A stretch of DNA of 64,000 nt from Planctomycetota bacterium (lineage in GTDB: Bacteria; Planctomycetota; PLA2; JAEUHO01), in the NCBI GenBank assembly GCA_965222115.1, contig CBDCTJ010000007.1, positions 832,001-896,000 of the forward strand, given 5' to 3'. The notes under the pieces were generated by a model, which had not been told where the DNA came from, did not search any database, and saw nothing but the letters and a program-made list of their open reading frames with translations. A program made the translations under genes and the position numbers. Position 1 is the stretch's first letter. Each line of letters begins with the position of its first letter. Shown one piece after another: positions 1 through 50,623 of this stretch.

Positions 1-572
1 AGGGAGGCACACAGAATCAGCCTAAATGCATCCGGTGCCTCGCGAGTTAGAATGCCACCGCGGCCATCGGGCTGGGCGATCTCTGATCGCCCCCCAAAGA
101 AGCAGCTATTCGTTTCGCTAGTTTCAGCAGGCCCAAAGAGGGCCCATTGGCGTCCCCATCAACGGTGCGAATATGCTTACCCCAGACCGTGTCGGGCGAT
201 TTCCGACCGAGTATGTGGTCCGTGTTTGACGGTGACGTGAGATCAACAACCTTTGCACCCTCTGGTAGCGTTACAAGCGGTGTCGGATTCGAGAAATTTT
301 CAGATTCCGGTGGCTTCAGACTGTGAGCGATGGCAAGCTCAATTGTGCATGCAGCCTGCCGCGTCGGAGAGTGGATCCGCAGCGTAGACACGGGGTGAAT
401 CACACCCCTCAGAGAACCTATCAGGCAGCCTCGCAACAGAACAACGTTGCTTCCCGATTTCTCGTCGCGCTTGATGACAGAACACGGCAACCTCCACGGA
501 CCAAGTGACACCTCAGCACCTGTACTCCGCAGCACCCCTCGATTCGAAGAGTCACGCGAAGCCCATTGCTTT

Positions 573-1034
573 GGTGCCTTATCCCACAGTGGCGTGGAGA
601 GGCTTAGAATGTCAGCCACGGAAAGGAGGCGAGGTCCGAAAGGAGTTGCGCCGAAGGCGTCAACCTGGCATCGGCGAGCATTGCTCCTCATATAGAAAAG
701 TGAGGCGCTCCTCGCATTCACGCTCGCCAATCGGTCGCGAACAACGATTCCTCTCTTTGACGACCGGGCCAACGGCTCTGGTATGGCGGATCTCGTAAAG
801 GTCACGTCGAGTACTAGGTTCCCCGAAGGTCACTTTGGATGTTCTGAGTATGGGCTCATATCGGAAGTACTTGAGAGTAGTAGCTATTCTTGACCTGGGA
901 ACCGCCGACCTTGGAGATAGTCACGACGGAGTCGTGGCGTAAGGGGCGAGAGCCCCTTGAAGGAACGAGTCGGTCTCCGACGATTCCGTAGCGAAGCGTA
1001 GGGCGCGTCGGTTCGAATCCGATCAGGCACTCCA
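573..1034 (+). ncRNA. Candidate large structured ncRNA with tRNA-like 3' end (unassigned family)
   Basis: More than 10 helices read by eye, e.g. TCC-GAAA-GGA 635-644, GGTTCCC 817-823/GGGAACC 897-903, AAGGTC 798-803/GACCTT 907-912, AAGGGGC-GAGA-GCCCCTT 941-958. Ends with T-arm GTCGG-TTCGAAT-CCGAT, then CAGGCAC-T-CCA. GTGCCT at 574-579 can pair with the acceptor strand. Confidence 0.5.
1006..1034 (+). repeat. Degenerate copy of the tRNA-Gly 3' end (att-like or tRNA-like domain)
   Basis: CGTCGGTTCGAATCCGATCAGGCACTCCA matches the last 29 nt of tRNA-Gly at 22355-22383 (minus strand) at 27/29. Confidence 0.85.
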
Positions 1035-22354: not shown

Positions 22355-22430
22355 TGGAGCGGCTGATCGGATTCGAACCGACGACAACGACCTTGGCAAG
22401 GTCGTGCTCTACCAGCTGAGCTACAGCCGC
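22355..22430 (-). tRNA. tRNA-Gly (GCC)
   Basis: GCGGCTG..CAGCCGC acceptor stem, anticodon loop TTGCCAA, T-loop TTCGAAT, U73 discriminator and CCA; 76 nt. Confidence 0.98.
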
Positions 22431-48604: not shown

Positions 48605-50623
48605 GTGCGACAGGCCAAGCCTGGACAAGGAGGAACTCATGACGTGACGAAACCTTGTGATGGAGCCCAACGGGTAACCAATCCCGTCCGGCCAAGCTGA
48701 CCGAGCAGCCGGAAGCAAACCTAGCGCGCTCTGTGGGTAACTGCGGGGTGTGAAGCACTAGGCAAGCGTGTGTGCGGGCTGTGTGATTGAGCCTCGAAAT
48801 TCTTATGACTGCGGTGGCCGACGATGTTCTTTGATCGGAAGGCACCATCGGAGACGAGCGTGTAGGTCTGCTCCCTCCGGCCCGCCGGGGTCTATGAGCA
48901 GGGCACGTACACAAAGGGGCTTCCCCAGGAACCTGTGAGATCCCATGCTGTCCTTCGAGAACTCGGCGCGGAAGGGCCGTAGACACTTCCAGCAATACGC
49001 AGCACGAGGCACACGCTTGTGTTGGGTGCGAAACAAGCGTGTGAAACGAAGGTACGGCGTCGCGAAGTCACCCGAGCGGCGCTGGACGCAGGTGGGAAGT
49101 CGGAGCGCTCCGTAGTACCGATGAACGGGGGGAACCTTTCACCAAGGGACCCTCGGGAGGGATGGGAGCGCCGCTATGTGTACTCCGTAGGAGGGAACCA
49201 TGACAGAGATCCCAAGCTTTGATCCCGTGTTACCGAAACTCCGACGGATCGCAATGCTTGCGAAGCAATCCCCGGAGATGGCGTTCACGTCGTTGAACTC
49301 CGCTCTGGACATGACGTTACTGCGTGAAGCGCATCGGCGAACGCGCAAAGGAGGCGCAACGGGCATAGATCGCCAGACGGCGCAGGATTACGCGAAGGAC
49401 CTGGAGAGCAATCTCCAGAGCCTGCTAAACCGTGCCAAGTCCGGCGACCGTTACCGCGCACCTCCTGTGCGACGTGTGCATATTCCCAAGGACAAGCCCG
49501 GGGAGACTCGGCCCCTGGGGATACCGACGTTTGAGGACAAGATCCTCCAACGCGCGGTGGCCATGATTCTGGAATCCATCTACGAACAGGACTTTGACTC
49601 CTGCTCGTACGGTTTCCGGCCTGGCCGCTCGGCACACGATCTGTTGGCTGCACTTCGTAACTCGATGATGAACATGAACGGCGGGTGGGTGCTTGAAGCC
49701 GATATCCGCAAGTTCTTCGACAGCGTCGATCACGCGCAGCTAATGGACGTGCTTCGCAAGCGGGTGCGAGATGGTGTGATTTTGCGATTGATTGGCAAGT
49801 GGCTAAATGCAGGTGTCATGGAGGATGGCCGCGTGAGCTATCCCAAAGGAACTGGTACGCCGCAAGGCGGAGTGATCTCCCCCGTGTTGGCCAACATCTT
49901 CCTCCATGAAGTGTTGGACACCTGGTGGAAAGAAGATGTCGCCCCTCGCATGAAGGGGGAGGCGCATCTCTTTCGTTACGCAGATGACTTCGTGATTGTA
50001 TTCGCTCGTGAAGCGGATGCACGGCGTGTGATGGACGTCGTTCCAAAGCGCTTCGACAAGTACGGCCTTGCCATCCACCCAGATAAGACTCGCTTGGTGC
50101 GATTCAAACGCCCGCGGCACTACGACTCCGATCATGATTCGGAAACGTTCGACCTGTTGGGCTTTACGCATCTATGGAGTCGATCCCGTAAGGGATACTG
50201 GGTGATTCGGCAGTTGACCGCACGAAGTCGGTATCGCCGCGGTCTGACGCGGATGTCCAAGTGGCTCCGCTCCGTCCGCCACCAACCTGTGCATTGGCAG
50301 CGTACAAAACTGGCACAAAAACTCCAGGGGCATTACGCCTACTACGGGGTGACTGGCAATACGCGTCGGCTGCACAACTTCCGGCGGGAAGCCATACGGC
50401 TTTGGAGGTACTGGCTGTGCCGCCGCTCTCAGCGCGCCAAGATGCCATGGGATCGTTTCAACCGACTCCTACAGCATCACCCCATTCCACCATCACGTGT
50501 CACGCGCTCGATCTATCGCGCCACCTAATCGGCGACCCACATAGCGAGGAGCCGGATGCGGTAATCCCGCACGTCCGGATCTGTAGGGGGGCTGGGGAGG
50601 GAAACCTCCCCGGCCTACCCGAC
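48605..50623 (+). mobile_element. Group II intron (IIB, bacterial class E-like), full length
   Basis: 5' GTGCG at 48605; EBS1 loop GAT-GT-TCTTTG-ATC at 48823-48836; domain V GAGCCGGATGCG..CGTCCGGATC at 50549-50581; domain VI ending CCCGAC at 50623. Boundaries independently supported by the rejoined repeat. Confidence 0.93.
49200..50528 (+). CDS. ltrA: Group II intron reverse transcriptase/maturase (no endonuclease domain)
   Basis: RPLGIPTFEDK, SYGFRPGRS, ADIRKFFD, GTPQGGVISPVLANIFL, RYADDF, FDLLGF; X domain GHYAYY; 442 aa with no HNH. Confidence 0.97.
   Translation: MTEIPSFDPVLPKLRRIAMLAKQSPEMAFTSLNSALDMTLLREAHRRTRKGGATGIDRQTAQDYAKDLESNLQSLLNRAKSGDRYRAPPVRRVHIPKDKPGETRPLGIPTFEDKILQRAVAMILESIYEQDFDSCSYGFRPGRSAHDLLAALRNSMMNMNGGWVLEADIRKFFDSVDHAQLMDVLRKRVRDGVILRLIGKWLNAGVMEDGRVSYPKGTGTPQGGVISPVLANIFLHEVLDTWWKEDVAPRMKGEAHLFRYADDFVIVFAREADARRVMDVVPKRFDKYGLAIHPDKTRLVRFKRPRHYDSDHDSETFDLLGFTHLWSRSRKGYWVIRQLTARSRYRRGLTRMSKWLRSVRHQPVHWQRTKLAQKLQGHYAYYGVTGNTRRLHNFRREAIRLWRYWLCRRSQRAKMPWDRFNRLLQHHPIPPSRVTRSIYRAT

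Follow-up and report, generated by a model that had tools for sequence, protein, structure and literature searches.

The window analyzed here is a stretch of 64,000 nucleotides from the genome of a Planctomycetota bacterium (G000:C7:832001-896000), and the element in question lies near its beginning, where a preliminary description had proposed a single ornate non-coding RNA of ~460 nt at positions 573-1034, closed by a tRNA-like acceptor stem. We consider it probable instead that positions ~897-1034 are one copy of a tRNA-linked palindromic repeat unit, similar to repetitive extragenic palindromic (REP) sequences and bacterial interspersed mosaic elements (BIME), and that 573-896 is an unconserved spacer. 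The unit ends with a copy of a tRNA 3' end and belongs to a family whose members stand next to tRNA genes and form tandem arrays; its stems covary among the copies, and its predicted GNRA tetraloops are biased to the tRNA strand. What remains of the earlier proposal is thus a structured element of no assigned family whose 3' end derives from a tRNA; however, it measures ~140 nt, exists in several copies and is linked to tRNA genes, and is not one RNA of ~460 nt.

The source of the 3' end was found outside the window. When the genome was searched with 560-1045, the T-arm part was matched ~4-5 kb upstream of the window start, and an intact tRNA-Gly(CCC) gene (C7:827903-827978, + strand) was called there by both ARAGORN and Rfam. 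Positions 1006-1034 (C7:833006-833034) are a 29/29 copy of positions 48-76 of this tRNA, and the gene and the fragment make up a direct repeat of 32 nt at 97% on the same strand with a start-to-start spacing of 5056. CAGGCAC in the fragment is the normal 3' strand of the acceptor stem in tRNA-Gly(CCC), the own 5' strand of which is GTGCCTG. The two "compensated differences" from a tRNA-Gly of this genome, which had been read as compensated by GTGCCT at 574-579, are an artefact of comparison with the wrong gene, namely tRNA-Gly(GCC) at 22355-22430. A tRNA-like 3' end beside many hairpins is, at this locus, a piece of a tRNA gene copied from outside the window and not the closure of a giant RNA. 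We also noticed a decayed tandem copy of tRNA-Gly(CCC) just upstream of the intact gene (L013:3705-3826, i.e., G000:C7:827705-827826); it lacks CCA, and both its D-loop and its variable region contain insertions. A comparable pseudo-tRNA-Pro, likewise with an insertion in the D-loop, is present at ~C1:252199-252300 and is followed by its own unit.

As judged from the sequences, the unit has a fixed order: anti-T, GGGGG(A/G)TAG with hairpin A, CGTA(A/G) with the G5/C5 hairpin B, a variable hairpin, GCGAAGC, and the tRNA 3' copy. In the candidate copy and the DNA preceding it, the features are as follows.

573-896, no strand assigned: non-unit spacer, lineage-specific non-coding DNA between the accessory genes and the unit
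897-910, + strand: "anti-T" GGGAACCGCCGACC, the inverted variable-loop end, T-stem 5' strand and T-loop start of tRNA-Gly(CCC), mismatched
911-920, + strand: head TTGGAGATAG, directly 5' of hairpin A; family consensus GGGGG(A/G)TAG
920-938, + strand: hairpin A (GTCACGAC GGA GTCGTGGC), -9.9 kcal/mol
939-958, + strand: GT and hairpin B (AAGGGGC GAGA GCCCCTT), -12.5 kcal/mol, a G-run/C-run stem with a GNRA loop
959-987, + strand: linker with hairpin C (GTCGG TCT CCGAC, 969-981)
988-1002, + strand: GCGAAGC-type motif GTAGCGAAGCGTAGG; family form GAGCGAAGCGAG
1006-1034, + strand: copy of the 3' end of tRNA-Gly(CCC), with the T arm at 1007-1023, acceptor strand at 1024-1030, U73 at 1031 and CCA at 1032-1034

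Three hairpins listed previously (920-938, 941-958 and 969-981) and the tRNA-like 3' end are accordingly parts of a conserved unit. In other copies, the anti-T slot is occupied by the reverse complement of the 5' half of the cognate T arm (AACCAGCGAC at Pro, AACCCGCGAC at Asp and Met, ACCAGGGAC at Ile and GAACCCCCGAC in the genome G014), and (C/G)GAC is found in the anti-T of 36 of the 40 distinct copies. The (G/A)TAG head was detected in 28/40 distinct copies by a strict column regex, with TAG shifted by one column in most of the other rows. The stem of hairpin A varies in sequence among the copies with its pairing kept, and hairpin B is preceded by a conserved CGTA(A/G), the head G(T/A/G)A(A/G) being present in 39/40 distinct copies. 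The linker and hairpin C are variable among tRNA types; nonetheless, ACGAGTCGGT...CGA is kept between the Gly-type units of this genome and of G102, a genome from a different family. By eye, the GCGAAGC-type motif sits 8-25 nt 5' of the T arm in many units, and AGCGAAGCGA is enriched genome-wide (43 sites vs ~9 expected). The copied segment sometimes includes the tRNA trailer and terminator. We also looked by eye for an acceptor-stem or minihelix closure. Of the 7 nt that precede TAG, five can pair with the 3' strand of the acceptor in the Pro and Asp units, four in Arg and two in Gly; this closure was rejected, as the pairing is not kept across the four types.

The family was traced from the candidate alone by using a single-sequence covariance model of 786-962. 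This model matched the genomes G009 (38 bits) and G014 (27.8 bits), in both cases with no more than the final ~50 positions of the model, which correspond to hairpins A and B; the matched part reads ...GGGG(A)TAG, a hairpin with a differing stem sequence, and CGTA(A/G)GGGG...CCCC. Both matches are located 50-110 nt upstream of a 3' fragment of tRNA-Pro and downstream of a tRNA gene or another fragment. In the candidate's own genome, a regex revealed six copies, two at Pro, two at Arg and one each at Asp and Gly. A T loop follows every copy at a distance of 53-90 nt, and the fragment after each copy matches the neighboring tRNA. With a model of the unit core through the G5/C5 hairpin (called R2; cut-off, E<=0.01), four of these were recovered (Pro x2, Gly and Asp), the two Arg copies being found by the regex only. 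R2 matched 25 of the 39 other genomes of the order (20/28 in the family f1 and 5/11 in f2); a single genome has as many as 10 copies, and tandem arrangements with a period of 150-222 nt are frequent. Of 150 other genomes sampled from the phylum, five were hit, namely four of the same order and G102. When seven unit loci were searched against Rfam 15 at E<=1, we obtained only tRNAs and sub-threshold matches to Plastid-ycf2 and BjrC68. The Plastid-ycf2 match is on the antisense strand of tRNA-Ile (33.4 bits with a cut-off of 65.7; E 0.0013), and BjrC68 was set aside, as it aligns to the copied terminator hairpin only. No description of such tRNA-linked units was found in the searchable literature, which did not extend to subscription journals, and the family is apparently undescribed.

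The linkage to tRNA genes is also seen at most of the other loci of the family that were fetched. At 19 of these 25 loci, a tRNA gene (Met, Pro, Asp, Val or Ile) lies upstream of the unit on the same strand, and in 18 cases the distance is 12-160 nt; of the remaining loci, one has a tRNA on the opposite strand, and five have none and are all ended by contig ends. A T-loop motif follows within 300 nt in 34/43 copies. At the Met and Pro-CGG loci, the repeated segment spans the T stem, CCA, trailer and terminator hairpin, and G008 has a pair of units in the interval that separates tRNA-Ile from tRNA-Ala and resembles the spacer of rRNA operons. Units of the Pro-CGG, Met and Asp types recur in several genera of two families, and the Gly type recurs in a third family, that of G102. 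There, the unit adjoins a tRNA-Gly(CCC)-like sequence only 45 nt away, and it can be aligned with the candidate over the entire unit at a mean column identity of 78% (a two-sequence MAFFT alignment with flanks included). The 4.9 kb found here between the gene and the unit would therefore be an insertion; namely, the unit would have been displaced from its cognate tRNA-Gly(CCC), 5 kb upstream, by ~4.9 kb of accessory DNA with an IS3 remnant and two lineage-specific genes. In sum, a conserved and covarying element with no match in Rfam accompanies tRNA genes in about two-thirds of the sampled genomes of the order.

Stems 920-938 and 941-958 covary, albeit in an alignment fitted to the model. In the 40 distinct copies, 89.4% of the cells are paired compared with 73.5% in shuffles (0/500 as high), and the covariation score is 0.344 vs 0.128 in shuffles (0/500) and 0.04-0.10 in controls with slid partners. 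Double-sided changes occur in 10/14 pairs overall: 6/8 in the first helix of the alignment (A6), which is hairpin A (85.9% of cells paired), and 4/6 in the second, hairpin B (93.3%). Despite the fitting of the alignment to the model, it is clear that pairs of hairpin A such as the one with GC in 15 and CG in 14 copies covary. When the predicted tetraloops are read on the tRNA strand, furthermore, 14/50 are GNRA, whereas the reverse complement of GNRA is found in 0/50. This bias in predicted loops would point to a role as RNA in the tRNA orientation, or at least to strand-specific selection.

REP and BIME sequences are extragenic hairpins with GTAG-like heads that exist in tens to hundreds of near-identical copies, and their cognate RAYT/Y1 transposase gene is flanked by the repeats. 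By analogy, the (G/A)TAG-headed hairpins of the tRNA-linked unit may act in single-stranded nucleic acid, and recombination via the T-arm hairpin could propagate the unit at tRNA 3' ends by duplicating everything between the T arm and the end of the transcript, giving rise to arrays. The unit is probably transcribed by read-through and would end like a tRNA precursor, because it is oriented like the tRNA and is bracketed by the tRNA on one side and a further copy of the tRNA's 3' end or terminator on the other. The beneficiary might be the host, for which the unit could serve as a terminator, processing or stability module, or the unit itself alone. This genome does have a Y1_Tnp gene (IS200/RAYT-like; G000:C7:1411691-1412035, - strand; 84.3 bits), which is flanked by inverted GCCCTGTAAGGGC hairpins, GATAG-headed hairpins and the GAGCGTAGCGAG motif. 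A separate repeat, GATAG followed by AGGGT[GAGCGAAGCGAA]ACCCT, is present in at least 10 copies in the genome, and its loop motif recurs in the units. A REP-like family, GGCTCCGAAGGAGCC..GATAGCTAAGGGTGAGCGAAGCGAACCCTG, is scattered over at least 10 sites genome-wide (e.g., C7:2612079, C3:80767 and C5:77554).

Several observations weigh against the idea of a REP/BIME-like unit. Unlike classical REPs, the units are low in copy number (4-10 per genome) and differ in their stems from copy to copy; also, the copies examined were found only by tRNA genes and with a copied tRNA 3' end. The hairpins flanking the Y1 gene have stems different from those of the units, and any link between the gene and the units is conjectural. 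No protein gene common to the unit loci beyond ordinary synteny was found. The Gly copy itself lacks the CGGGTT block and has mismatches in its anti-T. The alignment behind the covariation favors the structure, as it was fitted to the model, and a comparison of G-U (11 cells) with A-C (6 cells) left the strand undecided. None of the public runs contains RNA covering the stretch, and neither a sigma-70-like promoter nor a terminator was found in positions 1-1400 of the window. Two comparisons within genera (g8 and g10), in which the flanks were not alignable, revealed no empty site, and no tRNA was found near the orthologs of the ABC transporter or the kinase in relatives.

Among the alternatives, the one that survives best is that the tRNA-like end is the attR of a degraded ~5-kb island inserted in tRNA-Gly(CCC) by a tyrosine integrase, with the hairpins as a functionless remnant of the attP arm; we regard this as rather unlikely. 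According to the Islander paper (PMC4383910), displaced tRNA 3' fragments mark the ends of integrated genomic islands, and the filters ask for a full tRNA with a cognate end fragment, the 3' fragment downstream and in the same orientation, a span of 2-200 kb and no overlap with a Pfam-matched coding sequence. Indeed, the pair described above lies on one replicon and one strand, with the fragment (positions 48-76) downstream of the gene at a spacing within those limits and with no Pfam match over it. The interval in between consists of a 16-nt tandem repeat (three units), an IS3-type rve_3 fragment, a gene for a 596-aa CarboxypepD_reg protein, a gene for a 313-aa DUF1573 protein and ~1 kb of gene-free DNA. 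The DUF1573 protein is found in 0/28 genomes of the family and has no relatives in the genome contig collection, and the 596-aa protein gives weak domain matches only, in 4/28. In contrast, an ABC permease downstream of the copy is found in 21/28 genomes of the family, and the gene preceding the permease is conserved in G023. The genes of the interval are accessory, and those after the copy are core; the GC content is 0.51-0.59 inside and 0.58-0.64 outside. We also noted that the three 16-nt repeats are exact (CTAGTATGAATGCAGG; L013:3980-4027, directly after the tRNA gene), that the remnant of the IS3-family transposase extends over L013:4081-4362 (rve_3, E 4.4e-13), and that L013:4810-4927, with the hairpin CTGCCGCCCC..GGGCGCGGACGGCAG, is covered by many short metagenome contigs at 17-70x vs ~4x elsewhere; it is probably a repeat common to other organisms.

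Against the degraded island stands, first, the lack of the tyrosine integrase that Islander also expects inside such an interval: a six-frame search of the genome for PF00589 at E<=1 gave seven matches, none of which is in C7:824-834 kb. The same genome has three classical tRNA-bounded islands with a Phage_integrase, namely at Ser-TGA (C7:637875-647585), Lys-CTT (C7:2412366-2420769) and Ala-TGC (C7:2444844-2452602), spanning 9.6, 8.3 and 7.7 kb; the integrase at Ser-TGA is split over two frames. These pairs make an island at tRNA-Gly(CCC) conceivable, but their 3' fragments are longer (47-77 nt) and no R2 match is found at any of the three. At 18 of the 25 loci, furthermore, no island intervenes, the tRNA being separated from the module and the fragment by only 12-160 nt, and units also occur in tandem arrays and inside the tRNA-Ile/tRNA-Ala spacer; covariation and a GNRA bias would not be expected of a dead scar. 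In G012, a Phage_integrase open reading frame (PF00589, 74 bits) lies just downstream of tRNA-Pro(CGG) and points toward its 3' end (L098, G012:C131:1-1000, + strand). This genome has no R2 match, and its congeners G010 and G011 carry the unit at the same tRNA gene; tRNA 3' ends of this kind are therefore real targets of integrases. Serial integrations at tRNA genes are also described in the tycheposon preprint (10.1101/2020.12.28.424599). The 5-kb insertion may be real, but it is probably younger than the unit. Over L013:6879-10000, the DNA contigs from two samples show no differences, and the joints 3978->9007/9009 were rejected as excision products, as their sides of 27-28 nt are the repeat itself. 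In practical terms, the units can mislead programs that find islands from a tRNA and its fragment, and they can break assemblies at tRNA loci.

A second alternative, which we judge unlikely and slightly more so, is that the unit of ~140-200 nt is a functional small RNA acting in trans or in cis, in which hairpins A and B form a scaffold between antisense and sense cognate T arms; it could take part in tRNA maturation, be a decoy for proteins binding tRNA 3' ends, or guide a protein to the tRNA gene. The covariation and the GNRA bias confined to the tRNA strand would agree with this, as would the recurrence of the same tRNA types across genera and families, the change of the anti-T with the tRNA type, and the inclusion of the tRNA terminator copy at the Met and Pro-CGG loci. 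Pairing of the anti-T with the unit's own T arm is, however, weak (a mean of 7.3/11 matches vs 6.4 in mismatched controls); promoters were not detected, and a terminator often separates the unit from the tRNA. Public RNA runs that contain the stretch were also looked for and not found, identical tandem copies resemble a selfish or slippage expansion, 14/39 genomes of the order have no unit, and no partner protein is linked to it. It is more doubtful still that the units represent a new class of tRNA-gene-linked structured RNAs serving as a programmable guide or tRNA mimic. If so, such an RNA would direct a recombinase or nuclease to tRNA genes, or control the maturation or turnover of the neighboring tRNA, and the guiding of a recombinase or nuclease would account both for the shift of target among Pro, Met, Asp, Val, Ile, Gly and Arg genes and for the tandem arrays. 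Even with the REP/BIME-like unit preferred, the family hints at an unstudied use of the T-arm hairpin of tRNA genes by palindromic repeats or small RNAs.

Finally, the single ~460-nt RNA at 573-1034 with an acceptor stem of 574-579/1025-1030 is very improbable, being already contradicted by the conservation and shuffle tests detailed below. The letters themselves had been read correctly: all the listed strings were found in the sequence, with eight hairpins (635-644, 645-664, 686-705, 842-866, 873-891, 920-938, 941-958 and 969-981), four nested helices, the AGTACT-based 9-bp pairing, GTGCCT at 574, AGGCAC at 1025, TTCGAAT at 1012 and GGTGCCT at 34. The stretch of 462 nt as a whole does fold better than its shuffles (z -3.01; 0/100 as good), its + strand is favored over the - strand by 24 kcal/mol in folding, and the minimum free energy (MFE) fold pairs 573-579 with 1025-1031. 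Nevertheless, 16/552 strand-windows of the same size in the 64-kb window fold as well after correction for GC, and the T arm is absent from both the MFE and centroid structures. The claim of structure beyond shuffles holds for the whole and for 786-962 (z -3.71, 0/200; opposite strand, z -2.14, 5/200) but fails for 573-785 (z -0.18; 84/200 shuffles equally good). Also, when segments of 150 nt are ranked by folding, 751-950 alone is exceptional (rank 39 of 2556), with 551-750 being average. The acceptor closure is expected by chance: GTGCCT is present at 27 sites on the + strand of the 64 kb, with a probability of 0.34 for at least one per 1 kb, and 85 closing-hexamer sites exist in the 64 kb when G-U is allowed, three of them inside 1-1005. 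A tRNA 5' remnant at 574-640 was likewise ruled out by a shuffle comparison, in which 178/1000 shuffles were as similar to the tRNA 5' body as is the sequence after 579.

The homolog check gave a divided answer, namely a family in the order for the 3' part and none for 573-896. Indeed, 573-896 has a homolog in 0/39 genomes of the order, and searches with 400-1005 and 573-1005 against the 28 genomes of the family and the 39 of the order returned no homolog except for two matches of 31-43 nt (E 1e-3 to 1e-2), whereas an equivalent search recovers the tmRNA of this genome in 25/28 genomes of the family. A paralog of 573-1005 in the same genome was not found by nhmmer, nor was a homolog of the upstream stretch found in the plasmid and phage collections; exact patterns of 22-28 nt, by which only near-identical copies can be detected, found none in the viral, metagenome and genome collections. 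As far as profiles can see, 1-1100 contains neither a hidden protein gene nor an integrase pseudogene: no Pfam or PHROGs family was matched by 10 stop-to-stop frames of this region, a search of 5.8 billion proteins with the longest open reading frame (47-805, minus strand) returned just this frame, and GC is level across the codon positions. Positions 790-896 form local hairpins, and the arm 790-832 pairs with the 5' end of the unit (891-918); the long-range helices 790/914, 798/907 and 817/897 thus join unconserved upstream sequence to that end. The nested helices and the supposed pseudoknot are accounted for by the local AGGTC/AGTACT repeat structure in 798-912: four AGGTC motifs (two direct and two inverted) fall within 114 nt, against 1.6 per kb in the window, and two of the 10 AGTACT palindromes of the 64 kb are found within a span of 57 nt.

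The absence of known RNA classes, as stated in the preliminary description, was borne out. Rfam gave nothing at gathering scores in 573-1034 and, in 400-1200 at E<=10, only a chance match to a miRNA; ARAGORN called no tRNA or tmRNA at 573-1034, and the tmRNA covariance models had no match at E<=10. The genome already has a canonical tmRNA elsewhere (C7:2846179-2846536, 147.8 bits), which also speaks against the 460-nt RNA, and the proposed closing stem has G3-C70 in place of the alanine identity pair G3:U70. Inspection by eye also spoke against a hammerhead-like CUGANGA reading, which was rejected and for which Rfam gave no match. Elsewhere in the window, a group II intron is recognized on the + strand at Rfam gathering scores, with its D1-D4 domain at 48678-48900 (113.1 bits) and its catalytic domain at 50547-50623 (42.5 bits).

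The unit can finally be compared with four known systems. In tmRNA and other RNAs with a tRNA-like domain, as in this stretch, a T arm, the acceptor 3' strand, N73 and CCA end a larger structured sequence. The stretch, however, has neither an Rfam or ARAGORN match nor G3:U70, its 5' acceptor partner is unconserved, and, unlike in tmRNA, the 3' end of the unit copies whichever tRNA adjoins. The islands that Islander finds (PMC4383910) share with this locus an intact tRNA, a same-strand downstream 3' copy starting from the T stem, accessory DNA and then core genes. This locus differs in having no integrase and in the embedding of the fragment in a conserved hairpin module, which elsewhere is 12-160 nt from the tRNA, in tandem and free of islands, with an extra inverted T-arm half on its other side. 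Tycheposons, according to 10.1101/2020.12.28.424599, are kilobase elements that carry an integrase and separate partial tRNAs; their arrays resemble those of the unit in placing several partial copies of one tRNA beside the full gene, but the unit has a period of 150-222 nt, a covarying hairpin module and no genes. REP and BIME elements, lastly, share with the units extragenic hairpins headed by (G/A)TAG-type motifs, their clustering in mosaics downstream of genes, and the preservation of structure.

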